This document shows, in pieces, positions 1,774 to 58,240 of a DNA stretch of 64,000 nucleotides. Position numbers and translations under genes: made by a program. The notes beneath the pieces were generated by a model. It worked only from the letters and a program-made list of their open reading frames with translations, was not told the origin of the DNA and ran no database searches. This DNA comes from Terriglobia bacterium (GTDB taxonomy: Bacteria > Acidobacteriota > Terriglobia > Terriglobales > Acidobacteriaceae), in NCBI GenBank assembly GCA_963760215.1, contig CAVXCJ010000002.1, positions 3,665,920-3,729,919 of the forward strand. The letters run 5' to 3'. Within the stretch, counting starts at the first letter, position 1, and each line of letters begins with the position of its first letter.

Positions 1774-1806
1774 GTCCCTTCGACTTCGCTCAGGGCAGGC
1801 TCTGGG
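1774..1806 (+). repeat. GC-rich repeat core (family CCYTTCGRCTNCGYTCAGGGCAGGCTC)
   Basis: GTCCCTTCGACTTCGCTCAGGGCAGGCTCTGGG. Near-identical cores occur at 15743, 20166, 24808, 44567 and 58136, all in + orientation. Confidence 0.85.
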
Positions 1807-1865
1807 CTACTTTCGGCCGTCGCTACGCGACTACGCACAGCCGGGGCGGCCCGTGTGCCTCACGC

Positions 1866-3980
1866 TTATTCCTGCACGCTCACCACCTGCAACACTTCTT
1901 CCACCGAAGTATCGCCATTCAGCAGCAGTAAGCCCGCGTATTTCTTCAGGTCGAGCATGCCGTGGCGCAGCGCGGCGTTGTGGATTTCTTCCGTCAGCGC
2001 GCCTTTGGCGACCATGGTGCGCAACTCGGCGTTCATCTTCATCACTTCGTAGATTCCGATGCGGCCCTTCACGCCTTTGCCGGCGCAGGCGTCGCAGCCG
2101 CGGCCTTTCCAGAACTTGGAGCCGCGCGGCAGGCCCATGTAATCGCAGGTCGCGTCTTCGGCGACGTACTCTTCCTTGCAGTGCTTGCACAGGCGCCGCG
2201 CCAGGCGCTGCGCCATCACGCCGATGGTGGAAGACGAGATCAGGAAGGGCTCGATGCCCATTTCGTTCAGGCGGGTGAAGGCGCCGGCGGCGGAATTGGT
2301 GTGCAGCGTGGTGAAGACCAGGTGCCCGGTGAGCGCGGCTTCCACCGCGATGTGCGCGGTCTCTTTATCGCGGGTTTCGCCGACCAGGATGATGTCGGGA
2401 TCCTGCCGGAGGAAGGCGCGCAGAATGCGCGCGAAGTCGAGGCCGATATCGCTGTTGGCCTGGATCTGGTTGACGCCCGCGAGGTCGTACTCGATGGGGT
2501 CTTCGGCGGTGGAGATGTTGAAGCCCGGGTCGTTGATCTCGGTCAGCGCGGAGTAGAGCGTGGTGGTTTTGCCCGATCCCGTCGGACCGGTCACGTACAG
2601 GATTCCGTAGGGCTGGCTGATCAGTTCGCGGACGAGCTTGAGGGTGGGCTCGTGCGAGATGACCTTGTCGAGCCCCAGCATGGTGTTGGACTTGTCGAGG
2701 ATGCGCAGGCAGACCTTTTCTCCCCACTTGCCGGGAATGGTGGAGACGCGGAAGTCAATCGGCCTGGATTCCATGTTGACGGAGATGCGGCCGTCCTGCG
2801 GCAGGCGCTTCTCGCTGATGTCGAGCTTGGAGATGATCTTGAGGCGCGAAATAAGCCCGAGCTGCACTTTTTTGGGCAGGTTCTGGATGGTCTGCAGCAC
2901 GCCGTCAATGCGGTAGCGGACGATGACGTTTTTCTCCATGGGCTCGACATGAATGTCGCTGGCGCCCTTCTTGATGGCCAGTCCGAGCACGGAATTGGCG
3001 AGGCGGATGATGGGCGCGTCCTCGCTGGCGGACATCAGGTCCTGCTTGCTTTCGGCGATTCTGTCCTCGGAGACCTGGATGTCGCGGATGAGGTCGGACT
3101 GCATCATGTCGATCATGGCCTCGGACGAGGCCGGCGGCGCAGCCAGGGTGGTGGTGGGGGTGACGCCGGTGGCGGACTTGTCCTCTTCCTTTTTCATGAG
3201 CTGGTTGTAGGTGGTGCTCATGAACTTTTTGAAATCTTCCTCGGTGGTGACGACCGGCTCGATCATGACGCCCTTGATGATGCGGCGGATGTCGTCCACG
3301 GCGATGATGTTGTTGGGATTGACCATCGCGAGGGAGAGACGGTTATTGATGAAGGCGATGGGAATCACCTTGTGCTGCAGCACCATGGGCAGGGGAAGCA
3401 ACCCGAGCACGCGGGGATCGAAGTGCATCTTGGCGAGGTTGATGAATTCGATGCCGACATGCTGGCTGGCGTTCTCGACGCGCTCGGCGAGCACGGTGGT
3501 CAGGGCGAGGCCGATTTTCGGGTACTGCATCAGCAGGTCGTGGAAGTCGGCCTGTTCCAGCACGGCGCAGGTGGTGGGCTGAAGAGAGGTGACGGAGGCG
3601 GTGCGCGGCTTGCCGGTGAGCAGCGCCATTTCGCCGAAGTTCTGTCCCGGACCCATTTCGCTGAGGAGGAAGTCAATGCCGGTGTGCGGGTCCTTTTTGC
3701 GGATCTCCACCAGGCCGGCGGTGATGAAGAACATGGAACTGCCCGGCGCGCCTTCACGGACGATGATCTGGTTGGGCAGGAAGTCGCGGCGCTTCATGCG
3801 CTTGACCACCTGCTGGCAGTCGTCAACGGAGAGGGCGCTGAACAGTTTGATGCGCTGCAGGAAATGCTGCGGCTCGGCCGCGGGCTTGGACTCGTCGACG
3901 GCTTCGCGCGGGAAAGCGTCAGCAGCAGCGGCGGCGCCGCCATTCGGCGGGACAACCCCTTTCACCGGGTCAGACGACAT
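1866..3980 (-). CDS. GspE/PilB-family secretion ATPase with N-terminal cyclic-nucleotide-binding domain
   Basis: 704 aa. cNMP phosphate-binding cassette 'FGEMALLTGKPRTASV', T2SSE_N-like middle domain, Walker A 'GPTGSGKTTT', C-terminal Cys cluster 'CKHCKEEY...CDACAGKG'. GGAGG lies 7 nt before the ATG at 3980. The 12 upstream codons (MKLKLKL...) are read from a hexamer repeat. Confidence 0.85.
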   Translation of the reverse strand: MSSDPVKGVVPPNGGAAAAADAFPREAVDESKPAAEPQHFLQRIKLFSALSVDDCQQVVKRMKRRDFLPNQIIVREGAPGSSMFFITAGLVEIRKKDPHTGIDFLLSEMGPGQNFGEMALLTGKPRTASVTSLQPTTCAVLEQADFHDLLMQYPKIGLALTTVLAERVENASQHVGIEFINLAKMHFDPRVLGLLPLPMVLQHKVIPIAFINNRLSLAMVNPNNIIAVDDIRRIIKGVMIEPVVTTEEDFKKFMSTTYNQLMKKEEDKSATGVTPTTTLAAPPASSEAMIDMMQSDLIRDIQVSEDRIAESKQDLMSASEDAPIIRLANSVLGLAIKKGASDIHVEPMEKNVIVRYRIDGVLQTIQNLPKKVQLGLISRLKIISKLDISEKRLPQDGRISVNMESRPIDFRVSTIPGKWGEKVCLRILDKSNTMLGLDKVISHEPTLKLVRELISQPYGILYVTGPTGSGKTTTLYSALTEINDPGFNISTAEDPIEYDLAGVNQIQANSDIGLDFARILRAFLRQDPDIILVGETRDKETAHIAVEAALTGHLVFTTLHTNSAAGAFTRLNEMGIEPFLISSSTIGVMAQRLARRLCKHCKEEYVAEDATCDYMGLPRGSKFWKGRGCDACAGKGVKGRIGIYEVMKMNAELRTMVAKGALTEEIHNAALRHGMLDLKKYAGLLLLNGDTSVEEVLQVVSVQE

Positions 3981-3996
3981 GATGGGCCTCCAAACG

Positions 3997-4076
3997 AGTT
4001 TCAGTTTCAGTTTCAAGTTTCAGACGGTCGGAGCTGAACCCGAAACTGCGGACTCAAAACCCGAAACTGAAACTTC
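3997..4076 (+). repeat. Hexamer (AGTTTC) tandem array plus inverted partner: periodic-arm hairpin
   Basis: Left arm GAGTTTCAGTTTCAGTTTCAAGTTTCAG (3997-4023). Right arm contains CCCGAAACTGCGG and CCCGAAACTGAAACTTC (4034-4076). It lies directly upstream of the SD of the GspE-like gene. Confidence 0.85.
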
Positions 4077-4090
4077 TTCGTCGGGTTGCG

Positions 4091-4175
4091 GCTGACTTCC
4101 GCAAGTAACGCCGAGGGGAGAGGCGAGGGATTATACATCAGGCACCGGAAAGGCCGGATGGATTGCGAAGTCAGC
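4091..4175. repeat. 13-bp inverted repeat pair in divergent intergenic region
   Basis: GCTGACTTCCGCAA (4091-4104) versus TTGCGAAGTCAGC (4163-4175), with one bulge. They enclose a CCGGAAAGGCCGG mini-hairpin. Function unknown. Confidence 0.6.
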
Positions 4176-8707: not shown

Positions 8708-8710
8708 GGG

Positions 8711-8890
8711 GCAATTCTATCGGGTGATCGGGTGATCTGGTGATCGGGCGATTGAAAAGCAATCCAGAAGCGTGGCCGATTGCGGATTGAAGAACGGCAG
8801 GCAATTCTATCGGGTTATCGGGCGATCGGGTGATCGGGTGATTGAAATGCAAAACAGAAGCAGTGGCGATTGCCGATTGAAGAAGGGCAG
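8711..8890 (+). repeat. 2 x 90-bp tandem duplication, each copy containing 8-mer (ATCGGGTG) and 7-mer (ATTGCGG) sub-arrays
   Basis: Copy 1 (8711-8800) and copy 2 (8801-8890) both start GCAATTCTATCGGGT and end GATTGAAGAA(C/G)GGCAG. By eye about 85-90% identical. They fill the divergent intergenic region. Confidence 0.9.
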
Positions 8891-14485: not shown

Positions 14486-16983
14486 GCCTCAATGTAGGCC
14501 TTGGCTTCCCTGGTATCAATCCCCAGAGTTTGCGAGAGGCCGAACGCGGAGAGGCCGTAGACGATGCCGAAGTTCACCACCTTGGCGCGGCGGCGATGCT
14601 CGGAGTCCACCATGAGCGGGGGCACGCCAAAGACCTGCGAGGCGGTGAGGGTGTGAATGTCGTCGCCGCGGCGGAAGGCCTCCACCAGCAACCGGTCTTC
14701 GGAGAGGTGCGCCAGCAGGCGGAGCTCGATCTGCGAGTAATCACCCGCCAGCAGCAGGCAGCCGGGCTCAGCGATGAAGGCGGCGCGGATTTCGCGGCCC
14801 AGCTCGGTGCGGACGGGAATGTTCTGCAGGTTCGGGTTCTTCGACGAGAGGCGGCCGGTGGCGGTGTTGGTCTGATCGAAGGTGGTGTGCAGGCGGCGCG
14901 TGCTTTGGTTGAGCAGCAAAGGCAGCGCGTCCACATAGGTGGACTTCAGCTTTGAGAGCTGGCGGTAGGAGAGCACCAGGCGCGGCATTTCGTGCGCGGC
15001 GGCGAGGTCCTGCAGCACGTCCACGGCGGTGGAAATGGTCTTGCCTTTGCCGTATTTCATCGGCTTCGGCAGGTTGAGCTTGTTGAACAGAATGTCGCCG
15101 AGCTGCTTAGGAGAGTTGATGTTGAATACCTGCCCGGCAAGTTCGTAGATCTGGCGCGCCACCGACTGGCAGTCGCGATCCAGGCGCTTCGACATTTCGG
15201 CCAAAACGTCGCAATCGATTTTCACGCCGGCGTCTTCCATGCGCGCCAGCACGGGCACGAGCGGGAGATCAATGTCGCCGTAAAGCTGCTTCAAGCCAGC
15301 CTGCTCGACTTTTTCGCGCAGGGAGGAGGCGAGGCGGCCGGTGACGTCGGCGGCTTCGGGGAGCGATCCACCCAGCTTGAGGTTGAAGTGGCGCAGCGCG
15401 ACCTGGGGCAGGTCGTGGTTGGAGTAGGTTGGGTCGAGCAGGTAGGAGTAGAGCATGGGGTCGTGCTCGACGCCGGCAAGAGTCGTTCGACTTTGTGAAA
15501 CATCCCCACCCTGTCGCTCCAAACCCGGGAGCGACAAGGGTGGGCCACCCAGCGCGTGCAGGGCGGCCTTGAAGTCGTGAATGGATTTCGCGAGGTTGGG
15601 ATCGGCGAGCGCCTTTTTGACGCGCGCGGCGGCGTCGCCGTCGTCGAGGGAAATTGACAGTGCATGGCCGGGATGGGCGGAGATGGCAAGCCTGTCGGGC
15701 GCGGCGGCGGTCACTTCGGAAACATCCCCACCCTGTCGCTCCCCTTCGGCTGCGTTCAGGGCAGGCTCCAGCGGGAGCGACAAGGGTGGGGCAACCGTGG
15801 TTTCGCTATCAGCGATTTCGTCTTCTTCAGTCGCGGGCGAGGGCGCCCGCGCCACATTGGCTTGCTGCACGGCGATAGCGAGCGGGGCGTGCTTGCTCAC
15901 CGACTTAAGCACGCTTTCCACGTCGGCGGCGGATGCGGCGTCTCGGTAATCGGTCTCGCCGAGTTCGACGCCCGAAGGCAGGAATTCCTTCAGCAGCGTG
16001 GTGAACTCCAGCTCGGCAAAAAGCTCGCGGCAGGCGTCGGCGTCAGGCTCGACGGCGCGCATGGGCTCCAGGTCAAGCGTGACCGGGACGTTAGCATCGA
16101 TCGTGGCCAACTGCTTCGACCATAGAATCTGCTCGCGATAATTCTGCAGCGACTCGCGGTAAGTTTTCTTCTCGATTTCGGCGGCGTGCGCGAGGGCGTT
16201 CTCCACCGAGCCGAAGCGCTGGATGATGTCCACCGAGCCCTTGTCGCCGATGCCGGGCGCGCCGGGAATATTGTCAATCGCGTCGCCGCGCAGCGCCATG
16301 ACGTCCACCACGCGCTCGGGCGGCACGCCGAGAATTTCCTCGACCTTGGGTGGATCGCAAATCAGGTTGTCCTTGGGCGGATTGAGGACGCTGACCCGGT
16401 CGCTGACGAGCTGCAGCATGTCCTTGTCGTTGGAGACGACGTAGACGGTGTGCGACTGCGCGGCGGCCTGGCGGGCGAGCGTGCCGATGACGTCGTCGGC
16501 CTCGTAGCCCGGCATCTCGAGGATGGGAATGCGGTAGGCCTCAAGCAGGCGGCGGATGTGAGGGATCTGCTGCGCCAGGTCGGCGGGCATTTCCGCACGC
16601 TGCGCCTTGTAGCCCTTGTACTCCTGCTGCTGGAAGGTTTGCGTTTTCAGGTCGAACTTGCCGACAGCGGACATTTGCGCCGCCTGCTGGTCGCGGAAGG
16701 TGGGTGCGGCCACGTCGAAAACGGCGGCGCGGTACTCGGGCGCAAAGTCCTTTACCAGCTTGAGCAGCATGTTGGTGAAGACGAAGGTGGCGCTGGTGGG
16801 AACGCCGGTCTTGGTGCTCATCGGCCGCTGGCGCGCCATGGCGTGATAGGCGCGGAAGATGAACGACATGGCGTCGATCAGGAAGATGCGGGGGTTGCCG
16901 TCATTTTTCGGCGGCGTCTTGGGGGACGACGGCGCGGGCGCGGTGGTCGCGGGTTGCTGAGCGAATTTTTTGCGTGGGGGCAA
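14068..16983 (-). CDS. polA: DNA polymerase I
   Basis: 971 aa. 5'-nuclease 'IFLIDAMSFIFRAYHA'; polymerase motifs 'DYSQIELRLLAH' and 'LLQVHDELVFEAP'. Contains two repeat-derived in-frame insertions (see repeats at 15504 and 15723). Confidence 0.95.
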   Translation of the reverse strand: MPPRKKFAQQPATTAPAPSSPKTPPKNDGNPRIFLIDAMSFIFRAYHAMARQRPMSTKTGVPTSATFVFTNMLLKLVKDFAPEYRAAVFDVAAPTFRDQQAAQMSAVGKFDLKTQTFQQQEYKGYKAQRAEMPADLAQQIPHIRRLLEAYRIPILEMPGYEADDVIGTLARQAAAQSHTVYVVSNDKDMLQLVSDRVSVLNPPKDNLICDPPKVEEILGVPPERVVDVMALRGDAIDNIPGAPGIGDKGSVDIIQRFGSVENALAHAAEIEKKTYRESLQNYREQILWSKQLATIDANVPVTLDLEPMRAVEPDADACRELFAELEFTTLLKEFLPSGVELGETDYRDAASAADVESVLKSVSKHAPLAIAVQQANVARAPSPATEEDEIADSETTVAPPLSLPLEPALNAAEGERQGGDVSEVTAAAPDRLAISAHPGHALSISLDDGDAAARVKKALADPNLAKSIHDFKAALHALGGPPLSLPGLERQGGDVSQSRTTLAGVEHDPMLYSYLLDPTYSNHDLPQVALRHFNLKLGGSLPEAADVTGRLASSLREKVEQAGLKQLYGDIDLPLVPVLARMEDAGVKIDCDVLAEMSKRLDRDCQSVARQIYELAGQVFNINSPKQLGDILFNKLNLPKPMKYGKGKTISTAVDVLQDLAAAHEMPRLVLSYRQLSKLKSTYVDALPLLLNQSTRRLHTTFDQTNTATGRLSSKNPNLQNIPVRTELGREIRAAFIAEPGCLLLAGDYSQIELRLLAHLSEDRLLVEAFRRGDDIHTLTASQVFGVPPLMVDSEHRRRAKVVNFGIVYGLSAFGLSQTLGIDTREAKAYIEAYFEKYQGVRRFIDQTLAQARRDQKVATLFGRVRPIPDILSKNSNLRGFAERTAVNTPLQGAAADLIKIAMIRIDRLLRQQKLKSRMLLQVHDELVFEAPEEEIETLRALVKEQMEQAHPLKVPLLVDIGVGKNWRDLE
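15504..15544 (+). repeat. Hairpin repeat inside polA CDS
   Basis: CCCCACCCTGTCGCTCC-AAACCC-GGGAGCGACAAGGGTGGG. Translated on the - strand as ...GGPPLSLPGLERQGGDV... Confidence 0.85.
15723..15796 (+). repeat. Composite hairpin repeat inside polA CDS (core family nested in hairpin loop)
   Basis: CATCCCCACCCTGTCGCTCC-CCTTCGGCTGCGTTCAGGGCAGGCTCC-AGC-GGGAGCGACAAGGGTGGGGCAACC. Translated as ...VAPPLSLPLEPALNAAEGERQGGDV... Confidence 0.85.
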
Positions 16984-17033: not shown

Positions 17034-17167
17034 GGGGTCCTTCGACTCGGACGCGCAAAAGCGGCGCGCAAAAGCCAAGAGTTCCCTCGGCTTCGCCTCG
17101 GGATTTCGGCAGCGGGCTCCCGCTTCGCTCACGCCCGCTAAACGCCTCAACCTCGCTCAGGATGACA
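17034..17167 (+). repeat. GC-rich repeat unit bounded by GGGGTCCTTCGACTCGG ... CTCGCTCAGGATGACA (long variant)
   Basis: The termini match units at 28549, 37543, 42721 and 45113. Intergenic, between the 5' end of polA and the 3' end of the CDO-like gene. Confidence 0.8.
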
Positions 17168-20160: not shown

Positions 20161-20307
20161 CATCCCCCTTCGGCTTCGCTCAGGGCAGGCTCTGTCTCGC
20201 CCCCTCGCTACGCTTCGGGGCAGGCTCCCCCGGGCGAGACAAGGGTGGGGCAACCGCAACTGCGGCTGAAACCCACATCTGCCAAAGGCGGGCAGATGTG
20301 GGGCACC
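20161..20307 (+). repeat. Composite repeat block (core + GGGTGGGGCAACC hairpin + CACATCTGCC hairpin)
   Basis: CCCTTCGGCTTCGCTCAGGGCAGGCTC (20166-20192) ... GGGCGAGACAAGGGTGGGGCAACC, then ACCCACATCTGCC-AAAGGCG-GGCAGATGTGGGGCACC (20271-20307). The last hairpin has a twin inside the CDS at 54037. Confidence 0.85.
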
Positions 20308-20431
20308 ATCAACCCCGAGCGTGCCGTGCCCCGCGTGACGACGCGCGAGTTGCCGTACCAGCCAGGGTTTCTGATAAATTGGTGCGCCCGGAGTCTAGCT
20401 CCGGCGGCCGGAATGAGGGTGGGGCTCATTC

Positions 20432-24805: not shown

Positions 24806-24907
24806 TTCCCTTCGACTTCGCTCAGGGCAGGCTCTCGACTCGGACGCGCCGTGCGTGCGCGCAAACCCAGCGCGCACGCTTGTGGCGCGTCCTCGCTCGG
24901 AATGACA
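24806..24907 (+). repeat. Composite GC-rich repeat (core fused to TCGACTCGG...CTCGCTCGGAATGACA unit)
   Basis: TTCCCTTCGACTTCGCTCAGGGCAGGCTC-TCGACTCGGACGCG...CCTCGCTCGGAATGACA. Confidence 0.85.
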
Positions 24908-28548: not shown

Positions 28549-28614
28549 GGGGTCCTTCGACTCGATCGCAACGTGCCCAAAAGCGGGGCCCGTTGGATCT
28601 CGCTCAGGATGACA
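28549..28614 (+). repeat. GC-rich repeat unit GGGGTCCTTCGACTCG...CTCGCTCAGGATGACA
   Basis: Termini match the units at 17034, 37543, 42721 and 45113. + orientation. Confidence 0.85.
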
Positions 28615-35173: not shown

Positions 35174-35215
35174 CGCCGGGCACCAGAGGGCATTTTTGAG
35201 TGGAGGTTTTGAAAG

Positions 35216-35358
35216 GGCACGGCTTCAGCCGTGCCGCTTGGGCGCCCAAAACATGAGGGCTTTAGCCCCTGAGGGAATATCTCGTACCAGCAACTCTTCC
35301 CTCAGCGGCTAAAGCCGGCGACCGAGCCAGGCATGAACGGCGCGGCTGAAGCCGCGCC
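35216..35358. repeat. Cluster of four GC-stem tetraloop mini-hairpins
   Basis: GGCACGGC-TTCA-GCCGTGCC (35216-35235), GGGC-TTTA-GCCC (35257-35268), CGGC-TAAA-GCCG (35306-35317), GGCGCGGC-TGAA-GCCGCGCC (35339-35358). Confidence 0.85.
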
Positions 35359-35387
35359 CCTTCAAAGAAACCATGCACGGTGTTTGA

Positions 35388-37520: not shown

Positions 37521-37542
37521 GCATTGGTGCCGCAAAACCCAA

Positions 37543-37609
37543 GATCCCTCGACTCGGGTTTCCCGCGCTGGAAAAAGCGCGCGGGAGCCCTCCCTCGCTC
37601 GGGATGACA
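37543..37609 (+). repeat. GC-rich repeat unit (GATCCCTCGACTCGG...CCTCGCTCGGGATGACA) with inner hairpin
   Basis: The inner CCCGCGC-TGGAAAAA-GCGCGGG hairpin is flanked by family termini. + orientation. Confidence 0.8.
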
Positions 37610-37636: not shown

Positions 37637-38815
37637 CTAGGTGTGATAGTCCGCGTTGATGTGCACGTACTCACTGGTCAGATCGCACGTCCAAAACGTC
37701 GCGCCCACCTTACCGCGGCCCAGTTGCACGCGTACGTCGAACACCGGCTGGCTGAGATAGGAGTGCACTTTCTTTCGTCAAACCGCGCCGCGACGCCGCG
37801 ACGGCAGACCTGGTGCTTGCCGAAGAAAATATCCACCTTCGCGGGATCAAGCGCCACGCCGGAGTAGCCAACCGCCGCCAGCACGCGGCCCCAATTGGGA
37901 TCGGCGCCCGCCCACGCCGTCTTTACCAGCATGGAATTGCCGATCGCCTTCGCCACCTGCGACGCCTCGACATCGGAGCGCGCGGCCTCGATGCGCAAAT
38001 TCACCACGTGCTTCACGCCCTCGCCGTCGCTCACAATCTGCTTCGCCAGTGACTCGCACACCGCCTGCAGCGCCGCGCCAAAGTCTTTTTTCTTCACCTT
38101 GCCCGCTTCTCCACTCGCCAGCAGCAGCACGGTGTCGTTGGTGGAAGTGTCGGTAGTCCACGTTCATGCGGTTGAAGGTGACATGCACGGTGTCGCGCAG
38201 CAATGCGCCCAGTTCGCGCGGGCTCGCCTCGGCGTCGGTGAACAGGTACACCAGCATGGTCGCCAGCCGGGGATGAATCATCCCGGCGCCCTTGCATGTC
38301 CCGAACAGCGTGGCGTTGCCGAAGCGCGCCGAAGCAGTCTTCATGCGCGTGTCGGTGGTCATGATGGCGCGCGCGAAATTTTCTGCCCCGGCGACGGCGG
38401 TTGAACGAGCAGCGAACAATCGTGGTATGGCTTGGATCAGCTTGTCGGCAGGCAGCGGCACGCCGATGATGCCGGTGGAGGCGGGAAATACTTCGTGCTT
38501 TTCGCAGCCCGCAGCCTTCGCGACGCTGCCGCAGACCTGCTCGCACGCGCGCCGGCCCGCCTTGCCCGTGGCGCAGTTGGCGTTGCCGGAATTCACCACC
38601 ACCGCGTGCACGCGTCCCCGGGTTCGGCGCAGATGCTCGCGCCCGCACGCCAGCGGAGCGGCAATCACGCGATTGGTGGTGAACATCGCCGCCGCATTGG
38701 CGCCGCGCGGAGCGAGCGCCAGCGCCATGTCGGGGGAGCCCGAGACCTTGATGCCGGCGGTGGCGGAGGAGAATTCAAATCCCCGCGGTACCAGGATCTC
38801 GGAGGTGAGCTTCAT
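37637..38815 (-). pseudogene. argJ: Bifunctional ornithine acetyltransferase / N-acetylglutamate synthase, interrupted by two compensating frameshifts
   Basis: ArgJ homology is present in three consecutive segments: MKLTSEI...ATMLVYLFTDA...NRMNVD (frame a), TDTSTNDTVLLLASGEAG...DPNWGRVLAAVGYSG...RFDE (frame b), KKVHSYLSQPVFDVRVQLGRGKVGATFWTCDLTSEYVHINADYHT* (frame a again). Shifts are at about 38155 and about 37769-37780. Total span 1179 nt = 3n. Confidence 0.85.
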
Positions 38816-39396: not shown

Positions 39397-40673
39397 TAGC
39401 GTTTCTTACCTGTCGTCACACCCACCCTAGCCAAACCCGGGCTAGGGTGGGGCACCCGCGATCCGTTTTTCGATTCGACTTCGGTGAGCGCCTGGTCGAG
39501 CAGCTTCACGCCCTCGTCCACCTGTTTTTCCGTAATGATGAAAGGCGGGAGGAAGCGCAGCACCGTGTCGTGCGTGCAATTGATCACCAGCCCGTGCGCC
39601 AGGCACGCGTCCACCACGTCTTTGCCCGGGACTGCAAGTTGCAGCGCCAGCATCAGTCCGATGCCGCGCGCCTCCACCACCGAGGGATGCTTCCGCTTCA
39701 CTGTCTCCAGCTTCTCGCGAAAATACTTTCCCACTCGCCGCACGTTGGCGATCACGTTTTCGCGCTGCAAAGTATCGAGGAAGGTGATGGCCACGGCGCA
39801 GGCCAGCGGCCCGCCGCCGAAGGTTGTGCCGTGCAGGCCGGGCTTGATGGCGGCGGCGACGTGTTCGCGGGTCACGATGGCGCCCAGCGGCAGGCCCGAC
39901 GCCAGCGGCTTTGCCAGAGCCAGAATGTCGGGCGTGACGCCGTATTTCTGGAATGCGAAGTATTCTCCGGTGCGCCCCAGTCCGCATTGGATCTCATCGG
40001 CGATCAGCAGCGCGCCGTGACGCTCGGCCAGCTTGCGCGCCACCGAAAAGAATTCCGGCGTCACCGGGTTGATGCCGCCCTCGCCCTGGATGGGCTCGAG
40101 GAGGACCGCGCACACGCTGCCGTCGAACTTCTTTTCCAGGTCGGCGGCGTTGTTGAATTTGACGAAGCGTACGCCGGGCAGCAAGGGCTCGAACGGCTCG
40201 CGATATTTTTTTGTCGCGGTTGCCGCCAGCGCGCCCGCGGTGCGGCCATGGAATGAATTTTCCATTGCGAGAATCCGCCACGGGGCCTTGCTTCCGTTCT
40301 TGTTATGGAGCCGCGCGTAGGCGCGCGCCAGCTTCAGCGCTCCCTCGATGGCCTCGCTGCCGCTGTTGCAGAAGAACGCGCGGTCGAGGCCGGAGAGCCT
40401 GGTCAGGCGCTCCGCCAAAGCGGCCTGGTAGTCGTGGTAAAAGAGGTTGGAGATGTGCACCAGCCGCGGCGCCTGCTTGCGGATGGCCGCCAGCACCGCC
40501 GGGTGGTTATAGCCGAGCGCGCACACCCCGATACCGCTGAGCCAATCCAGGTACCGCCGGCCGCGGTCGTCCCAGAGATAGCAGCCCTGGCCGCGGCGAA
40601 ACAGCACTCGCTTACGATCGTAGGTGGGCAGCAGAAGTCTGGCTTCCGCCCGCGCCACCGCCTCGAGATTCAC
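39396..40673 (-). CDS. argD: Acetylornithine aminotransferase
   Basis: 425 aa from a GTG that overlaps the argB stop (GTGA). 'NSFHGRT' and 'DEIQCGLGRTG'. The last ~22 codons (...SRVPHPSPGLARVGVTTGKKR*) are encoded by a hairpin repeat. Confidence 0.9.
   Translation of the reverse strand: MNLEAVARAEARLLLPTYDRKRVLFRRGQGCYLWDDRGRRYLDWLSGIGVCALGYNHPAVLAAIRKQAPRLVHISNLFYHDYQAALAERLTRLSGLDRAFFCNSGSEAIEGALKLARAYARLHNKNGSKAPWRILAMENSFHGRTAGALAATATKKYREPFEPLLPGVRFVKFNNAADLEKKFDGSVCAVLLEPIQGEGGINPVTPEFFSVARKLAERHGALLIADEIQCGLGRTGEYFAFQKYGVTPDILALAKPLASGLPLGAIVTREHVAAAIKPGLHGTTFGGGPLACAVAITFLDTLQRENVIANVRRVGKYFREKLETVKRKHPSVVEARGIGLMLALQLAVPGKDVVDACLAHGLVINCTHDTVLRFLPPFIITEKQVDEGVKLLDQALTEVESKNGSRVPHPSPGLARVGVTTGKKR
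39421..39451 (+). repeat. Hairpin repeat (CCCACCCTAGCC-AAACCCG-GGCTAGGGTGGG) inside the argD 3' end
   Basis: 12-bp perfect stem followed by GCACCC. Same GGGTGGGGCA-type 3' end as the hairpins at 15527, 15774, 20236 and 44640. Confidence 0.85.
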
Positions 40674-42720: not shown

Positions 42721-42765
42721 GGGGGGTCCCTTCGACTCGGGCGTGCGCCCTCGCTCAGGATGACA
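42721..42765 (+). repeat. GC-rich repeat unit, short variant (GGGGGGTCCCTTCGACTCGG...CTCGCTCAGGATGACA)
   Basis: Termini identical to the family. + orientation. Confidence 0.85.
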
Positions 42766-44561: not shown

Positions 44562-44659
44562 CCCCACCCCTTCGGCTTCGCTCAGGGCAGGCTCTATCTC
44601 GCCCCTTCGACTGCGTTCCAGAACAGGGTCCCCCAGGGCGAGATAAGGGTGGGGCAACC
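44562..44659 (+). repeat. Composite repeat (core nested in GGGCGAGATAAGGGTGGGGCAACC hairpin)
   Basis: CCCCACCCCTTCGGCTTCGCTCAGGGCAGGCTCTATCTCGCCC...GGGCGAGATAAGGGTGGGGCAACC. Same architecture as 15723 and 20161. Confidence 0.85.
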
Positions 44660-44681
44660 ACGTCCGGCCGGAGGAGCAACC

Positions 44682-45112: not shown

Positions 45113-45165
45113 GGGGTCCTTCGACTCGGACGCCCAAAAGCAGGGCTTCCTCGCTCAGGATGACA
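45113..45165 (+). repeat. GC-rich repeat unit (GGGGTCCTTCGACTCGG...CTCGCTCAGGATGACA)
   Basis: Termini identical to the units at 17034, 28549 and 42721. + orientation. Confidence 0.85.
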
Positions 45166-53103: not shown

Positions 53104-54792
53104 GTGACCGATACCCGTGCCGCCGCTCCTGCCGCCCCCACCCAAGCCGCCGCCTGGACCGAACTGGTGACGCTGGCGGGTTTCTGCGCCTACCTGTTCT
53201 ACTTCGGGTTGGGAAGCTTCGGGCTGGTCGGCGCCGATGAGCCGAGGTACGCGCAGATCGCGCGCGAGATGCTCGCCCGCCACGACTGGATCACGCCCAC
53301 GCTCAACGGCCTGCCGTGGCTGGAAAAACCGGCGCTGTACTACTGGAGCGCCATGGTTTCTTACAAGCTGTTCGGGGTGAGCGACTGGGCGGCGCGCGTG
53401 CCCTCCGCCGTGTTCGCCACCGCGATGATCGCGGCCATGTATGGCTTCGTGCGGCGCTTCCAGGCCGGCATGCAACTCGATGCCGCGCTGATCGCGGCTT
53501 CTTTTGCGGCCGTGATCGGATTTGGCCGCGGCGCCTCCACCGACATGCCGCTGGCGGCGACGCTGACCCTGGGACTGCTCGCGTGGTACGCCTGGCGGGA
53601 GACCGGACGCAAACCGTGGCTGGCGATTTTCTACCTCATGATTGCGCTGGGCACGCTGGCCAAAGGTCCGGTCGCGCCGGCGCTGGCGGGCGCGATCATC
53701 GTTGTATTTGCCCTGATGCAACGGTCGGAAACCCGCGCCACACGCCTGATCGCGGACACAATGTGGATTCCGGGCGTGCTGCTGTTTTTCGCGGTCGCGC
53801 TGCCCTGGTATGTCGCAGTGCAAATGAAGACCCACCAGTTTTTCCAGGTGTTCATCCTGCAGCACAACCTGGAGCGCTTCGGAACCAACCTGTATCGCCA
53901 CCAGCAGCCCTACTGGTATTACGTACCGGTATTCCTGCTCGGCGTGCTGCCGTGGACGGTGTACGTACTGGCGGCCATTGTGGCAGCACTGCGCGGCACG
54001 ACGGGCCACGACGCGGCGCCGACGCTTGCCAACACACCCACATCTGCCAAAAACGGGCAGATGTGGGGCACCAACGCGTGGCGCGCGTTTCTGCTGCTGT
54101 GGATTGCGGCGCCGCTGGTGGTGTTCACGATTTCGCGGTCGAAACTGCCCGGTTACATTCTGCCTTCCGTTCCACCGTGCGCGCTGCTGCTTGCCGATTG
54201 GATGAGAACCCGCCGGGGCGAGCGCGCCGCTGCGCCGTTGGCCATTTTTCATTCTCTGGCGTGCGGACTGCTGCTCGGAGGAGCGCTGCTGGCGCCTTAC
54301 TTCATCGTGCGGATGCATCCGCCGGCGCAGGCAACCACCATCGCCGCTGCTGCCGCCGCGGTGATCGCCGTCGCCATGCTGGCCAGTTTGCGCTGGCAGG
54401 GCCTGCGCGTGCTCCGCTTTGTCACGCTGGTGCCGGTGGTGCTCGGGCTGGCATTCGTGCTGCGAGTGAGCGCGCCGGCCATTGACCGCACCCAATCGGC
54501 GCGGCCGGTAGCGCTTGAGCTGGCGCGGCTGGATACGCGCGGCGCACCGCTATCCGCGTTCAACGTCACCCGCGAGCTGGAGTATGGCCTGGATTTTTAC
54601 CGCAACCAGCCGCTGTTGCGCTACGAGCGCGGCGAGGTGCCTGCGGGCGGCCACCTGCTGATCGCGCGCTCCGGCTCGGAGCCGCAACTCGAGGCGCTGC
54701 TCGCGCCGCGGCGGCTGTCGCATGTGGGCAGCTTCGCCCCGCAGCATCTGGAGTTTTATTGGGTATCGTCGGGAGCGGCGCATCACCACTGA
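53104..54792 (+). CDS. Family-39 glycosyltransferase (ArnT/PMT-like), polytopic membrane protein
   Basis: 'GADEPRYAQIAREM' motif after TM1, then more than 10 TM helices. GTG start chosen (AGGGAG upstream); an in-frame ATG at 53017 is an alternative. Carries an in-frame hairpin repeat at 54037. Confidence 0.8.
   Translation: MTDTRAAAPAAPTQAAAWTELVTLAGFCAYLFYFGLGSFGLVGADEPRYAQIAREMLARHDWITPTLNGLPWLEKPALYYWSAMVSYKLFGVSDWAARVPSAVFATAMIAAMYGFVRRFQAGMQLDAALIAASFAAVIGFGRGASTDMPLAATLTLGLLAWYAWRETGRKPWLAIFYLMIALGTLAKGPVAPALAGAIIVVFALMQRSETRATRLIADTMWIPGVLLFFAVALPWYVAVQMKTHQFFQVFILQHNLERFGTNLYRHQQPYWYYVPVFLLGVLPWTVYVLAAIVAALRGTTGHDAAPTLANTPTSAKNGQMWGTNAWRAFLLLWIAAPLVVFTISRSKLPGYILPSVPPCALLLADWMRTRRGERAAAPLAIFHSLACGLLLGGALLAPYFIVRMHPPAQATTIAAAAAAVIAVAMLASLRWQGLRVLRFVTLVPVVLGLAFVLRVSAPAIDRTQSARPVALELARLDTRGAPLSAFNVTRELEYGLDFYRNQPLLRYERGEVPAGGHLLIARSGSEPQLEALLAPRRLSHVGSFAPQHLEFYWVSSGAAHHH
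54037..54072 (+). repeat. Hairpin repeat inside the GT39 CDS
   Basis: CCCACATCTGCC-AAAAACG-GGCAGATGTGGG-GCACC, encoding PTSAKNGQMWGT. Near-identical to the intergenic copy at 20271-20307. Confidence 0.9.
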
Positions 54793-54911
54793 GTTGTGAG
54801 AAATGCCAAACCTGGATTCCTCGCGGGCTGAAGCCCGCTCGGAATGACAAAGATCAAAGAGCTTGTCCGGCACGGCTGAAGCCGTGCCCTTCCCACAGTG
54901 CGCACAACTCA
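54790..54911 (+). repeat. MITE-like 122-bp unit bounded by 9-bp inverted repeats, carrying two tetraloop hairpins
   Basis: TGAGTTGTG (54790-54798, overlapping the GT39 stop) / CACAACTCA (54903-54911). Inside are GCGGGC-TGAA-GCCCGC and GGCACGGC-TGAA-GCCGTGCC. It is followed by AACTCAAAACTCAGAACTCG heptamers. Confidence 0.6.
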
Positions 54912-55036: not shown

Positions 55037-56002
55037 GTGGAGATCCTCGATCTCAGGCATTTTTCGTCGTCGGACCTGCGTCCGCTGCTGGACGAAGAGG
55101 CACAGGTGTGGTCCAAGCTGCTGGCGTGGGACTACAGCAATTCGACGGAGATGATCCTGCGCTACATTGACGCGCGCATCCTGCCCGGCTACGCGGCGCT
55201 GGAGAAAGGCCGCATCTGCGGGTATGCGTTCTTCGTCTACGAGGGCAGCAAGGGAGTGATCGGCGATTTGTTTGTGGAAGGCGACGGCGTGCGCTACGCC
55301 AGTCCGACCGAACACCCGGTGGAAACGCGGCTGCTGACGCACGTCATCGAGACGCTGCAACAGTCACCGGGCATTCACCGCATCGAGGCGCAACTGCTGG
55401 TGCATCCGACGGGCGCGGTGGCGCGGCCGTTCCTGGAAGACGGCTTCCATCGCTATCCGCGCTTGTTCATGGTGCTGCCAATAGCGTCGAACGGGAACAA
55501 CGGGCAGGGCAGGCCGCCTTCCGTCCCCGAGGGAGTTGATATCCGGCGTTGGAGCGAACAGGACTACCAGGCGGCCGCGGCGGTGATCACGGCGGCCTAC
55601 CGCGGGCACATCGATTCCGAGATCAACGACCAGTACCGCACCATCGCCGGGTCGCTGCGGTTCCTGAACAATATCGTGCGTTTTCCCGGCTGCGGGCAGT
55701 TCGACGGCGGCTCATCCTTTATCGCCTATCACCGCCCTTCGCGAACCGCGGTGGGATTGATCCTGTGCTCGCGGGTGAAGAACGACGTCGGGCATATCAC
55801 GCAGGTGTGCGTCCTTCCCGAGCACCGCGGCAAGGGAATCGGCGAGGCGCTGCTGGCGGCGAACCTGCAGGACCTGAAGCACCGGCGATTTTCCATGCTG
55901 TCGCTGACCGTCACGGAAGCGAACAAATCGGCGGTGGAGCTGTATAAGCGCCTGGGCTACCACATCGAGCGGGTGTTTGACGCGTTTGTCTGGGAAGGGT
56001 GA
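55037..56002 (+). CDS. GNAT-family N-acetyltransferase (two-lobed)
   Basis: 321 aa, GTG start. C-terminal lobe 'VLPEHRGKGIGEALL...AVELYKRLGY' is the acetyl-CoA binding motif. Confidence 0.75.
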   Translation: MEILDLRHFSSSDLRPLLDEEAQVWSKLLAWDYSNSTEMILRYIDARILPGYAALEKGRICGYAFFVYEGSKGVIGDLFVEGDGVRYASPTEHPVETRLLTHVIETLQQSPGIHRIEAQLLVHPTGAVARPFLEDGFHRYPRLFMVLPIASNGNNGQGRPPSVPEGVDIRRWSEQDYQAAAAVITAAYRGHIDSEINDQYRTIAGSLRFLNNIVRFPGCGQFDGGSSFIAYHRPSRTAVGLILCSRVKNDVGHITQVCVLPEHRGKGIGEALLAANLQDLKHRRFSMLSLTVTEANKSAVELYKRLGYHIERVFDAFVWEG

Positions 56003-56259
56003 AGAAATTGCCGAATTGCCGAATTTGAGAATTGGCGAATTTTACGGCTCAATTCTGCAATTCTGCAATTCGTCAATGTCTGCAGCAGCCACATGGCCCA
56101 GCCGGCGCCGATCACGCCGACAATAAACAACGTGAAGCAATAGGCGCCGTAGCGCACCATGTCGCGCGGGGTGTTGCGTTGCGTGATGCCGAAGACCACG
56201 GAAGCGAAGAGGGCGAACAGCAGCGCGGCGGTGAAGTGCGACAAGTGCAGGGGGCTCAT
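55957..56259 (-). CDS. Small membrane protein (2 TM); C-terminal ~40 codons repeat-derived
   Basis: ATG overlaps the upstream stop (ATGA). MSPLHLSHFTAALLFALFASVVFG...FTLFIVGVIGAGWAMWLL. The tail reads through the 8-mer array, and the ORF's last 46 nt overlap the convergent GNAT gene. Confidence 0.5.
   Translation of the reverse strand: MSPLHLSHFTAALLFALFASVVFGITQRNTPRDMVRYGAYCFTLFIVGVIGAGWAMWLLQTLTNCRIAELSRKIRQFSNSAIRQFLHPSQTNASNTRSMW
56006..56078 (+). repeat. Periodic-arm hairpin, octamer AATTGCCG / CAATTCTG
   Basis: Left AATTGCCGAATTGCCGAATTTGAGAATTGGCGAATTTT. Right CTCAATTCTGCAATTCTGCAATTCGTCAATG. Confidence 0.9.
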
Positions 56260-56675
56260 GGTTTCTTCCCGATGGCGATGTGGTAAGCGTCCACGGCGCT
56301 GATGATGTTGAGCAGCCCGGCGACGATCAGGTACTTGGTGCCATAGTCGGCGGTGGCGCGTGCAATGTTGCCGGTGCCGGCATCGAGCGCCTTGCTGACA
56401 ATGTAGAGCGCGCCCGCGCCGACGTCGCCAATGAATCCGAGGACGTCGAGAATGTCGCCGGTGTTGGGCGAGTAGAGCTTGCCTTCCATCAGCAGGCCGA
56501 GCACGAACATCGCGACCACCGAAACCATCAGCAGCAGGCCGCGCGTCCAGCGTTTCTGCAGCAGGTGACCGGCGCCGGGAATCAGCCATCCCACCGCGGG
56601 CGCCACCACGGCCATGACGGCATTGGGCGCGGCCACCGCTTCGGCGCGCTCGATATTGGACTTGCTCGCGGCCAT
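56256..56675 (-). CDS. Membrane protein (3-4 TM), DUF6677-like
   Basis: 139 aa. 'GWLIPGAGHLLQKRWTRGLLLMV'. Its start overlaps the stop of the upstream M24 peptidase by 1 nt. Confidence 0.6.
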   Translation of the reverse strand: MAASKSNIERAEAVAAPNAVMAVVAPAVGWLIPGAGHLLQKRWTRGLLLMVSVVAMFVLGLLMEGKLYSPNTGDILDVLGFIGDVGAGALYIVSKALDAGTGNIARATADYGTKYLIVAGLLNIISAVDAYHIAIGKKP

Positions 56676-57847
56676 CAGATGATCACCAACTCGCTCTGCA
56701 CTTTCCCGGTGACCTCGGCGGCGCCCTTCCGCACCAGCACGTTCACCTCGCTGCGCACGCCGAATTCGGGCAGGTAAATTCCGGGTTCCACGGAGAAGCA
56801 GGTATTGGGCAGGACCAGCCGCTCGTCGTGGATTTCCAGATTATCCATGTTGGCGCCGTTGCCGTGGACTTCGGTGGCAATGGAATGGCCGGTGCGATGG
56901 ATGAAATATTTTCCGTAGCCGGCGGTTTCAATCACGTCGCGCGTCGCCTTGTCCACTTCCCATCCGGCGATCTTCTGTCCGGCGGAAATAGCGGACTTCA
57001 CCTTTTCCACGCCGGCATCGCGCGCTTGTTTCACCACCTCAAAAACCTCGCGCTGCTTCTGCGAGGGCGCCTTGCCGACGAAGCCCATCCAGGTGATGTC
57101 GTAGTAGACGGCGCCGGGCTTGTTCTGCTTCGCCCAGACGTCGAGCAGCACCAGGTCGCCCTCGCGGATGGGCGAATGATGCTCGGCGGAGGGGCCGTAA
57201 TGCGGGTTGCTGGCGTTGGCGTTGGCGGCGACGATGGGCAGGTCGTCGGTGACCAGGTCCTCGCGCTGGAACGACTCGGCGAAAAACTTCTGGATGTCGA
57301 ATTCGTTGGTGCCGCCGTTGCGCACGCGGCGCCCGATTTCCTGGAAGGCGGCGGCCGTGATCGCATCCACCTTCTTGCCGGCGGCGAAATGGGTTTCGAT
57401 CTGTTCGTCGAGCAACGTGGCCTCGAAGCGCGACACCAGGTCGGCGGAGCTGACGATGTTCTTGCCAAAGCTGCGTATCAGTTCCACCGTGCCGGCGTCC
57501 ACCAGCGAGACCGTGAACACGATGTTATTGGGCGAATACTGCATGGCGAGGTTGCGGTACGGCGCCAGCATGGACTTGAGATTTTCGAACAGCTCCTGCC
57601 AGCCCGAGTACTCGCGCTTGGTGCCGGGCAGAGAGTCGAGATGGCCGGCCTCGATGCGATGCACCAGCTTGCGCGGCTCGCCCTCGGCGGGCACAACGTA
57701 ATACCAGCGCCGGGTGACCATCAGGTGCTCGGGAACTCCGAGCACGCGATAGGCAATGGCGTCGCGGTGGTGGTGGTCGTAAAACAGCCACGCATCGATT
57801 TTCTGCTCGCGCAGGGCGGCTTGAATGGCGGGAAGGTCCATGGGCAA
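56675..57847 (-). CDS. M24-family metallopeptidase (Xaa-Pro aminopeptidase type)
   Basis: 390 aa. 'DITWMGF', 'HRTGHSI', 'SVEPGIY', 'VRSEVNV' are pita-bread metal-ligand regions. Confidence 0.85.
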   Translation of the reverse strand: MPMDLPAIQAALREQKIDAWLFYDHHHRDAIAYRVLGVPEHLMVTRRWYYVVPAEGEPRKLVHRIEAGHLDSLPGTKREYSGWQELFENLKSMLAPYRNLAMQYSPNNIVFTVSLVDAGTVELIRSFGKNIVSSADLVSRFEATLLDEQIETHFAAGKKVDAITAAAFQEIGRRVRNGGTNEFDIQKFFAESFQREDLVTDDLPIVAANANASNPHYGPSAEHHSPIREGDLVLLDVWAKQNKPGAVYYDITWMGFVGKAPSQKQREVFEVVKQARDAGVEKVKSAISAGQKIAGWEVDKATRDVIETAGYGKYFIHRTGHSIATEVHGNGANMDNLEIHDERLVLPNTCFSVEPGIYLPEFGVRSEVNVLVRKGAAEVTGKVQSELVII

Positions 57848-57868
57848 AAATCTATTGTATCGGACACA

Positions 57869-58096
57869 TTACGATTTCTGCGAATCCTGCACTTGACGCT
57901 CCAGGCGGCGGATCGAATCGTCGGTTTCGCGCAGGAACCCCGAGGATTCGACCGCGCCGAGTTGGTGCTCGAAGGCCGGCACGAACAGCGGCCGGTGTTC
58001 GAACATCATGCGCTTGAGCGCTTCAAGGTGCAGCTTGAGTTCGCGGATTTGTTTTTGTTGGGCAAGGAGAAGTTCGTAGATCGCAGTTTCATTCAT
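57869..58096 (-). CDS. Small hypothetical coiled-coil protein
   Basis: 75-aa ORF 21 nt upstream of the M24 gene on the same strand, with heptad-like hydrophobic pattern. No family recognised. Confidence 0.45.
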   Translation of the reverse strand: MNETAIYELLLAQQKQIRELKLHLEALKRMMFEHRPLFVPAFEHQLGAVESSGFLRETDDSIRRLERQVQDSQKS

Positions 58097-58132
58097 AGGA
58101 TTTGTAGGATCAGCCCGGATTCTCTATCTGCC

Positions 58133-58240
58133 GTCCCCTTCGACTGCGCTCAGGGCAGGCTCTACGGGACTCTGAACATTTTTCGAACAGCTTCCCCGGC
58201 ACTTACGTGCCGGGCTAGGTTCTACCGCCCCTTCGGGGCT
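58133..58240 (+). repeat. Repeat block (core + two mini-hairpins)
   Basis: CCCTTCGACTGCGCTCAGGGCAGGCTC (58136-58162), CCGGCAC-TTAC-GTGCCGG (58196-58213), GCCCC-TTC-GGGGC (58228-58240). Confidence 0.8.

Follow-up and report, generated by a model that had tools for sequence, protein, structure and literature searches.

The window, a 64,000-nt stretch of a contig from a Terriglobia bacterium, contains many short interspersed repeats of three motif classes: a core module (type 1), type-2 units and REP-type hairpins. The only transposase gene is a DDE gene of an IS5-like element (395-1627), and a Y1 transposase is absent from the window, as a reading of the sequence alone (hereafter the sequence-only reading) had stated. 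The core, CCYTTCGRCTNCGYTCAGGGCAGGCTC, occurs six times (at 1776, 15742, 20166, 24808, 44568 and 58136), with 0 matches expected in a shuffled window. The copy at 1776..1802 (+) is located between convergent genes, 40 nt from the IS5-like element, and that at 58136..58162 (+) lies between two - strand genes. The core at 24808-24834 is fused to the 5' side of a type-2 unit (24835-24907), the two spanning 24808..24907 (+). Another type-2 unit, GGGGTCCTTCGACTCGG..hairpin..CTCGCTCAGGATGACA (17034..17167, +), includes an extra nested insert of ~80 nt. Further units are found at 28549..28614 (+), flanked by two - strand genes, at 37541..37609 (+), between convergent genes and with a 5' end that has diverged, and at 45113..45165 (+), flanked by two + strand genes. 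A short unit occupies 42724..42765 (+; an identical variant exists in relative L126) and a degenerate one 54817..54849 (+).

Several hairpins lie within genes. Two are in frame within polA (- strand), one without a core and with the loop CAAACC (15504..15550, +), the other with a core (15742-15768) in its loop (15726..15797, +). Another is in frame within a PMT-family glycosyltransferase gene of the + strand (54036..54073, +), and a class-III aminotransferase gene of the - strand has one at its 3' end (39420..39457, +). Two divergent intergenic regions contain composites. The first (20166..20255, +) consists of a core (20166-20192), a degenerate core-like segment (20203-20228) and REP-type arms ending GGGTGGGGCAACC; beyond it, the hairpin ACCCACATCTGCC..GGCAGATGTGGGGCACC (20271..20308, +) is the reverse complement of a published A. 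capsulatum REP type. In the second (44562..44660, +), which also has REP-type arms, the left arm holds a core (44568-44594) and the loop a degenerate one.

Every copy of the three classes has the same orientation, as originally claimed. All six cores, all seven copies of the type-2 3' end (CTCGCTCRGGATGACA) and 5/5 copies of the type-2 5' end are on the + strand, as are the hairpin tails ..GGGTGGGGCA / GATGTGGGGCA at 15538, 15784, 20243, 20295, 39445, 44647 and 54060. A search of the window for reverse copies with a profile HMM (126 copies) returned nothing significant, the best minus-strand match having E=2.6. The copies are beside and inside genes of both strands, also as described by the sequence-only reading, and their intergenic contexts are convergent, divergent and tandem. 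A few of the coordinates given by that reading deviate by 1-3 nt (15743 for 15742, 44567 for 44568, 37543 for 37541 and 42721 for 42724). The figure of ~19 copies given there overstates the number of independent sites, which is ~15 (two-sided p ~6e-5), because copies are nested or adjacent at 15722, 20166-20308, 24808-24907 and 44562-44660. It had also extended the single orientation to every asymmetric repeat. This is correct for the three motif classes, but copies of the hairpin family AAGGGCACGGCTTCAGCCGTGCC point either way (35208 +, 35338 -, 54868 -), and thus polarity is not shared by all repeats of the window.

By sequence comparison, the hairpin class qualifies as a genuine acidobacterial REP with cognate RAYT genes. 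Read on the - strand, the hairpins have a foot, GGTGC or GGGTGC rather than the canonical GTAG, followed by a CCCAC..GTGGG stem. Identical REP sequences were published for RAYTs of A. capsulatum, G. mallensis, T. saanensis and T. roseus (Quentin et al., 2018, PMC6006769, Table S1). REPs are short imperfect palindromes (about 20-65 nt) that can fold as single strands, and the hairpins agree with this: their stems measure 10-19 bp, and the composite has a folding z of -5.6. In related metagenome contigs, the hairpins flank RAYT genes with their tags pointing outward, the arrangement of a REPtron. These genes (L247, L182 and L193) score 101-110 bits against the NCBIfam model REP_Tyr_transpos (cut-off 80) and also match Pfam Y1_Tnp. 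The main form is not the inverted doublet (REPIN/BIME): the window has singlets only, just five close inverted doublets were found in the metagenome contigs, and hairpin pairs more than 300 nt apart in these contigs have the same orientation in 13 cases versus opposite in 3. Stem position 5 is a C.A mismatch in 63/100 hairpins, with a T.G wobble on the opposite strand. Of the two REP strands, the one bearing the guide foot and folding without the mismatch is the C-rich strand, and the hairpin is weaker when folded from the G-rich strand.

The three motifs had been described as related. The core and type-2 units are indeed one family and have CCTTCGACT[..]TCGCTCAGG in common, but the hairpins are not part of it and belong to a separate REP family. 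The core is a non-palindromic, non-folding module of 25-27 nt (folding z of the core alone = +1.2 and +0.5), and type-2 is the form with an internal hairpin. Core strings are missing from published REP tables, and the core has no guide foot. Across about 1.3 Mb of loci, no core copy has a RAYT or other Y1 gene nearby, and the combination of palindrome, foot and linked RAYT was not found for the core/type-2 family. The repeat elements (single hairpins or the 27-nt module) contain no ORFs, and none of the three classes is covered by an Rfam family, even at E<=10. Unlike the species-specific REPs, the core is identical across phyla, and the exact 25-mer spans at least 10 phyla and also turns up in phage contigs. 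The core frequently occupies hairpin loops, both of REPs and of other kinds, and at least 12 unrelated stems enclose it. Its insertion sites include an AT-rich spacer in Aequorivita (L006) and coding sequences in other phyla.

Repeats have been gained and lost between close relatives. Motif matches in four syntenic relatives are all on the window's + strand, at partly different sites. Three close relatives have no repeat at the polA site 15504..15550 and a fourth has the core there, and the site 15726..15797 is filled, half-deleted or empty among relatives. The L123 orthologue of the type-2 unit at 17034..17167 is 53 nt long and does not have the ~80-nt insert. The PMT hairpin (54036..54073) is absent in the orthologues L280 and L281 and present in L282, and both the degenerate type-2 unit at 54817..54849 and the core at 58136..58162 are missing from the orthologous spacers of L280. 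In two independent cases, orthologous hairpins with identical arms have a 27-nt core exchanged for the loop AAA. One polA gene contains three composite hairpin-plus-core units.

We oriented loci by motif and then measured GC skew, which was also the sole basis for assigning the leading strand. The core served to orient 117 independent 8-kb genome loci, whose mean skew is +0.045 (82 positive, 34 negative). Regression gives an intercept of 0.0465 +/- 0.008 with no gene-strand term, and gene bases are divided between the same strand (311 kb) and the opposite strand (288 kb). At third codon positions the strand component is +0.10 (CI 0.07-0.14), and the window's own values (skew 0.0456, r3 0.096) equal those of the pooled core loci. 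By a mixture fit, at least about 90% of cores are on the G-rich strand. The signal is strong in Acidobacteriota (skew positive:negative 61:16, p=6e-7) and not significant for cores outside this phylum (18:17). Metagenome contigs oriented by REP hairpins (n=83) have a mean skew of +0.115 (71 positive, 11 negative, one zero), r3 of +0.23 and genes of 168 kb on the same versus 166 kb on the opposite strand; among the 44 that reach 4 kb, positive and negative skew stand at 40:3. The type-2 3' end word gives 65:19 in core-oriented and 16:1 in REP-oriented loci. For a flip at origin and terminus the indication is anecdotal, from a pair of loci on a single contig, with a + core at 136 kb where skew is +0.028 and a - core at 576 kb where skew is -0.071. 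In Acidobacteria, repeat orientation most likely follows the direction of replication, not of genes.

The sequence-only reading had proposed that either insertion is single-stranded and strand-specific, as in REP/RAYT or IS200/IS605 systems, or selection acts in relation to replication direction. The tracking of the G-rich strand, the independence from gene strand and the REP/RAYT identity of the hairpins support this proposal. We regard it as probable that orientation is fixed relative to the fork and that RAYT-type single-strand processing is the cause. The window would lie on one replication arm of a Terriglobia-type chromosome, with its + strand, the G-rich strand, corresponding to leading-strand sequence and lagging-strand template. 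All copies would be co-oriented because the orientation of each family is set relative to the replication fork, not genes. RAYT-type HUH/Y1 enzymes, encoded elsewhere in the genome, may handle the elements as single strands supplied by the fork, with insertion, excision or both efficient on just one of the two template strands, so that a single orientation accumulates. RAYT activity would then drive the polarity, and the core may use the same or a similar route.

The hairpins resemble known REP/RAYT systems in that they are published REPs reverse-complemented, flank RAYT genes, form inverted doublets at some sites and occur in frame within genes, as reported for other REPs. They differ in being mostly singlets with near-absolute orientation to replication. 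Such orientation is not described in the REP literature that we compared, where the sole hint is from P. fluorescens SBW25, whose tandem REP arrays are oppositely oriented on the two arms. The core/type-2 family differs further, as it is non-palindromic, outside the REP tables and common to several phyla. Hairpin REPs are already known, the core module is undescribed and replication polarity is a newly noted property. Elements of the IS200/IS605 group (IS608, ISDra2 and miniature derivatives) share single-strand hairpin ends, a Y1 HUH enzyme and a strong fork-relative orientation bias, which has been suggested for REPs too, though not demonstrated. However, the elements described here have no transposase and no distinct left and right ends. 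In addition, the active strand of IS608 is on the lagging-strand template, whereas the guide-bearing REP strand here is C-rich (strand taken from GC skew and analogy). The presence of a second element inside a REP hairpin recalls IS1397, ISKpn1, ISPpu9 and interspersed mosaic elements, although the inserted core is tiny (24-27 nt), is non-coding and replaces the loop AAA. Bacterial interspersed mosaic elements are mosaics of palindromic and non-palindromic modules, as are these repeats.

A less likely explanation is that selection sets the polarity, with insertion occurring both ways and the harmful orientation purged or the other orientation useful. One orientation could, for instance, expose a more stable hairpin or a protein-binding sequence on the lagging-strand template, or the repeats could have a polar architectural function like that of Chi or KOPS. 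The orientation of the repeats does follow strand composition as that of architecture-imparting words does, and, like KOPS, Chi and such words, the repeats are co-oriented with the leading strand over long ranges and independently of genes. The weaker hairpin on the G-rich strand, with its C.A mismatch, also agrees with selection, but window copies with perfect stems are equally polar. The core contains GGGCAGGC, which we take to be one base from the E. coli KOPS consensus. As a polar word of this kind GGGCAGGC was rejected, being non-polar outside cores (49:41), as was GGGNAGGG, whose 104:61 is ordinary for G-rich words. KOPS and Chi are fixed 8-mers, whereas these elements are insertions of 25-130 nt that are polymorphic among close relatives and tolerated in essential genes, unlike fixed functional sites. 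Finally, REPs have a known transposase-like partner, which is a direct mechanistic source of asymmetry.

Copying coupled to replication, without a transposase, seems improbable. Nascent lagging-strand pieces would anneal at other forks via homology of the hairpin arms, and the annealed single-stranded pieces would convert sites or seed copies there; fork-relative orientation would therefore be inherited at every copying event. Single-strand annealing recombination has an established lagging-strand bias. The exchanges of core and AAA between identical arms, the repeated composites in one polA gene and the lack of an enzyme linked to the core are all in accord with such copying. However, it leaves unexplained both the identity of the core across phyla and its first arrival at homology-free sites, such as the Aequorivita spacer and the coding sequences in other phyla.

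Two bolder readings, which we hold less likely than not, are that the core is a new kind of mobile unit and that RAYT works on the opposite strand. In the first, the core would be a mobile module, non-coding, non-palindromic and so far undescribed, that is common to bacterial phyla and phages. It would target exposed hairpin loops of one replication strand, taking the place of AAA, by means of a novel enzyme or a fork-coupled copying route. In the second, REP singlets would be polar with the RAYT-recognised strand on the leading-strand template, equivalent to the nascent lagging strand. If so, RAYT would act on the strand opposite to that used by IS200/IS605 transposases, for example through joining at the ends of Okazaki fragments or through removal of copies from the lagging-strand template.

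An RNA identity of the repeats (as sRNAs, terminators or UTR structures), with orientation set by transcription, is very improbable: a 'probable RNA' motif of Rfam, Acido-Lenti-1, adjoins or overlaps two cores, but orientation is independent of neighbour gene strand in the window and in pooled loci, copies are antisense within polA and sense within the PMT gene, and the core is unstructured and, like the type-2 units and REP hairpins, outside Rfam families. The Acido-Lenti-1 covariance model (RF01687; threshold 37) matches 58195..58240 (+) with 57.6 bits, 33 nt 3' of a core, and 1789-1832 with 35.3 bits, just below threshold and overlapping the core at 1776..1802. Both matches are on the + strand and each is tied to a core. 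Elsewhere (L008), a core sits inside one Acido-Lenti-1 hairpin, and the motif therefore looks like a DNA repeat-mosaic module rather than a free-standing sRNA. The match at 58195..58240 appears to belong to the same repeat mosaic as the neighbouring core.

The repeats of the window all face one way. The 27-nt core is present in six copies, the 3' end of the type-2 unit (the hairpin-bearing form of the core) in seven and its 5' end in five, where chance predicts none or almost none of each. All of these copies (6/6, 7/7 and 5/5) are on the + strand, and the tails of the REP-type hairpins were also found on + only. As the sequence-only reading had it, all copies share one orientation: neither word scans with relaxed matching nor a profile HMM trained on 126 copies gave a significant match to a reverse-strand copy in the window. 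That reading treated about 19 copies as independent, a figure we lower to about 15 sites because some copies abut or nest (two-sided p ~6e-5). The polarity of the repeats in the window is real.

Copies had also been described near and inside genes of both strands, and the gene map (constructed from codon-position G+C, Pfam matches and synteny, with ~34 kb of genes on + and ~23 kb on -) bears this out. Repeats on + occupy convergent spacers (1776 and 37541), divergent spacers (20166-20308 and 44562-44660) and tandem spacers of either gene strand. Within genes, they are found in polA (- strand), in a PMT glycosyltransferase gene (+ strand) and at the 3' end of an aminotransferase gene (- strand). 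The G+C content of the window is 63% and the cumulative GC skew climbs along it. Another hairpin repeat, AAGGGCACGGCTTCAGCCGTGCC (35208-35236, 35338-35366 and 54868-54891), falls outside the polarity rule because it is present in both orientations and forms one inverted doublet, with 101 nt between the members. This family is also present in three acidobacterial core-carrying loci (L001, L004 and L011), sometimes with the core in the loop.

The hairpins, one of the three motif classes, are an already described REP. They have the form CCCAC-stem-A-rich loop-stem'-(G/A)TGGGGCA(C/A)C, with stems that vary and covary and ends that are conserved. Table S1 of Quentin et al. 2018 (PMC6006769) gives GGGTGCCCCACATCTCGCAGAGATGTGGG as the REP of the Acidobacterium capsulatum RAYT (REP-associated tyrosine transposase), and also lists RAYT REPs for Granulicella mallensis, Terriglobus saanensis and T. 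roseus; the code AbacA01 in that table is probably strain Ellin345. The published acidobacterial REPs are the reverse complement of the window hairpins, and thus the guide foot GGTGC lies 5' of the hairpin on the - strand of the window. A REP/RAYT kind of element, and a search for RAYT, had been proposed from the sequence alone, and RAYT genes flanked by hairpins do occur in three metagenome contigs. When 120 metagenome contigs picked by hairpin pattern alone were searched with the E. coli RAYT (tblastn), four matched. Three RAYT ORFs score 101-110 bits against the NCBIfam model REP_Tyr_transpos (cut-off 80) and also match Pfam Y1_Tnp. Each has hairpins on both sides with the tags (conserved 3' ends) pointing outward, which is the REPtron arrangement. 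Close inverted doublets with outward tags were also found.

The three motifs had been taken to be related. This holds for the core and type-2 units, which have CCTTCGACT ... TCGCTCAGG in common and are one family; the hairpins are a separate class. In type-2 units the two halves are separated by a hairpin with an A-rich loop, and the terminus is ATGACA. The core by itself is unfolded, with a stability below that of shuffled sequence on both strands, and is frequently carried in an apical loop (30 copies in loops, on at least 12 unrelated stems). In these loop-borne cores the 5' junction is mostly right at the stem and the 3' side keeps 0-7 nt of loop. Flanks complementary over at least 6 bp were detected for 14% of core copies vs 3% of controls.

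Comparison with relatives shows gain and loss of these units. Among PolA orthologues (81-94% identical), two linker sites vary in whether they carry inserted segments of 8-25 residues. DNA comparison with the polA-syntenic relatives (L123-L126) indicates that site A (in the window, the core-bearing hairpin at 15726-15797) is occupied in the window and in L123 and L126; L124 has lost half of the insert, and L125 has none. Site B contains a hairpin without the core in the window (15504-15550), a hairpin with the core in L126, and is empty in L123-L125. The polA of L126 carries a third composite copy. The orthologous polA hairpin loop reads ..CGCTCC-AAA-CCCGGG.. in the window and ..CGCTCC-CCTTCGACTGCGCTCAGGGCAGGCTTC-CCCGGG.. 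in L126 (net +24 nt), and an exchange of AAA and 27 nt likewise distinguishes L123 from L125 in the type-2 unit upstream of polA. The window's version of that unit has an additional nested insert of ~80 nt. The REP within the PMT gene (54036-54073) is present in some orthologues and lacking in others. Another relative, syntenic over 18 kb, has empty sites where the window carries core, type-2 and REP copies. In the four polA-syntenic loci, every motif match is on the window's + strand. The two polA sites suggested a pre-existing GGGGCA / GCCACCC tail as target site; this idea was dropped because at the PMT site the tail arrives with the insert.

Beyond the window, repeat orientation is linked to the replication strand, as read from GC skew. 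Searching species-representative genomes for the exact core 25-mer recovered at least 120 stretches of 8 kb. Among the matches listed, 117 loci have cores in a single orientation, and their core-oriented GC skew has a mean of +0.045 (82 positive, 34 negative). Gene bases around the cores are even (311 kb vs 288 kb), and when skew is regressed on gene-strand fraction (100 listed loci with G+C of at least 54%), the intercept is 0.0465 +/- 0.008 and the slope 0.009 +/- 0.013. For third codon positions, the strand component of the skew (r3) is +0.10 in core-oriented loci (bootstrap CI 0.07-0.14). The window itself matches the pooled loci (skew 0.0456, r3 0.096, 44 of 57 8-kb sub-windows positive). 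In a two-component mixture fit, the best share of G-rich-strand cores is 1.0, with 0.9 and 0.8 being worse by 1.8 and 4.1 log-likelihood units, respectively. Among the matches listed, the signal is found in Acidobacteriota (61:16, p=6e-7) and is not significant beyond this phylum (18:17).

The REP hairpins give the same sign. Scanning metagenomes with the pattern CCCAC N12-30 TGGGGCACCC yielded 83 usable contigs, with a mean REP-oriented GC skew of +0.115 (71 positive, 11 negative and one zero; 40:3 of the 44 contigs of at least 4 kb) and an r3 of +0.23 (CI 0.19-0.28); gene bases amount to 168 kb vs 166 kb. Neighbouring REP copies more than 300 nt apart have the same orientation in 13 cases vs 3. 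The type-2 end word GGATGACA (65:19) is among the most skewed octamers of the core-oriented loci, and in REP-oriented contigs the longer type-2 3' end stands at 16:1. A flip of orientation is hinted at directly in one case only, a pair of cores on a 2.7-Mb contig: one on + at 136 kb with positive local skew, the other on - at 576 kb with negative local skew. Strict polarity had been read as a possible sign of strand-specific insertion of ssDNA or of selection tied to replication direction, and this interpretation is supported. Selection for KOPS was rejected: outside cores, the KOPS-like word that they contain shows no polarity. For REP singlets and the nested core family, a polarity relative to the replication strand appears to be unreported in the REP papers examined.

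At position 5 of the REP stem, 63 of 100 hairpins have a C.A mismatch on the G-rich strand, which is a T.G wobble on the C-rich strand; over all stem positions, A.C-type vs G.T-type mismatches number 75:9. This pattern and the 5' guide foot mark the C-rich strand as the one predicted to be folded and recognised. The GC-skew convention for the leading strand is established for most bacteria. If it applies, the C-rich strand serves as template for the leading strand and corresponds in sequence to the nascent lagging strand. The active strand of IS608 and ISDra2 is on the lagging-strand template, and the sign for the REPs here would thus be reversed. One option is that copies with the active strand on the lagging-strand template would be excised and lost; another is that joining would occur into the nascent lagging strand.

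The spread of REPs has been disputed for decades, and RAYT action on ssDNA at the fork has been proposed, so far without proof from genomes. Abundant REP singlets that keep to one replication strand in at least ~90% of cases, across many genomes, would leave just such a direct footprint of coupling to the fork, and the apparent sign, opposite to that of IS608, narrows the possible mechanism. The polarity is usable as a marker of replication direction on fragmentary acidobacterial contigs. The core also accounts for a common class of unusual peptide insertions in annotated proteins and of spurious ORFs (e.g., ..EPALSAVEGE.. in PolA).

The core is present, exactly conserved in sequence, in Bacteroidota, Patescibacteria, Chloroflexota, Nitrospirota, Verrucomicrobiota, Alphaproteobacteria and others, with some copies within long ORFs. 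It may be among the smallest known mobile units and may cross phylum boundaries. We identified exact cores in 33 IMG/VR viral or proviral contigs (L127-L159), on average on the G-rich strand (r3 +0.12), and phages may be carriers or spreaders of the module. In IMG/VR contigs of very strong skew (0.15-0.28), the core is on the G-rich strand and runs in the same direction as most genes. No core-bearing acidobacterial plasmid was found in the plasmid collection. The sole notable plasmid match is Trichlorobacter lovleyi pIAE1 (L122), in which three places match the core; one copy, ATCCCTTCGACTACGCTCAGGGCAGGCTC (4001-4030), is in the 3' part of an annotated transposase gene.

A literature search with the repeat strings returned nothing relevant, and the core and type-2 strings do not appear in the REP table of Quentin et al. 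(PMC6006769). Searches with Y1 queries (IS608, ISDra2 and E. coli RAYT, approximate in sequence) gave no match in the window or core loci, a negative that is meaningful for RAYT, because this query later matched REP loci, and weak for IS608/ISDra2. The window had been said to lack a Y1 transposase gene, and its sole transposase is indeed of the DDE type. A transposase between the duplicated cores of two core-carrying loci (L020 and L023) was considered; the intervening genes are all ordinary. A link of type-2 units to the 'CnGA-footed' structures of acidobacterial class-3 Y1 genes was rejected, the published Solibacter sequences being unrelated.

In Rfam, only Acido-Lenti-1 (RF01687) matches, at the gathering threshold and also at E<=10. 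It is tied to cores in the window (58195-58240 and 1789-1832) and in L008, L085, L124 and L125, lying 33 nt downstream of one core, overlapping another or, in one genome, having the core within a hairpin of the motif. Because of this physical tie, it may belong to a mosaic of DNA repeats, as one of its modules, and not be an sRNA gene. A REP-bearing metagenome contig (L183, 1634-2975) has a tandem array with a period of 108 nt and every unit in one direction; the unit comprises a REP hairpin, a second hairpin with a GGGGCACCC tail and a type-2-like end, CCAGAATGACG. Strongly strand-skewed octamers of the core-oriented loci (L001-L120) and the window include GCGGGCGG (163:51), GTGGCGGG (74:19) and GCTGGCGG (182:80), candidate acidobacterial Chi/KOPS-type words; GCTGGCGG differs from E. 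coli Chi by one base.

The window's transposase belongs to a complete IS5-like insertion sequence (368-1735), with perfect 27-nt terminal inverted repeats (368-394 and 1709-1735) and a DDE transposase gene (DUF772 + DDE_Tnp_1; 395-1627). The end motif CTACGGGACTC occurs again at 58163, immediately 3' of a core. The argJ gene (37678-38815) is broken into two ORFs that overlap and differ in frame (37847-38815, profile positions 2-202; 37678-38130, profile positions 212-336), which could be due to a frameshift, a pseudogene or sequencing error. Two tandem 90-nt units (8710-8889), 86% identical and full of GATCGGGTGATC sub-repeats, lie in a spacer with a - strand gene on one side and a + strand gene on the other.
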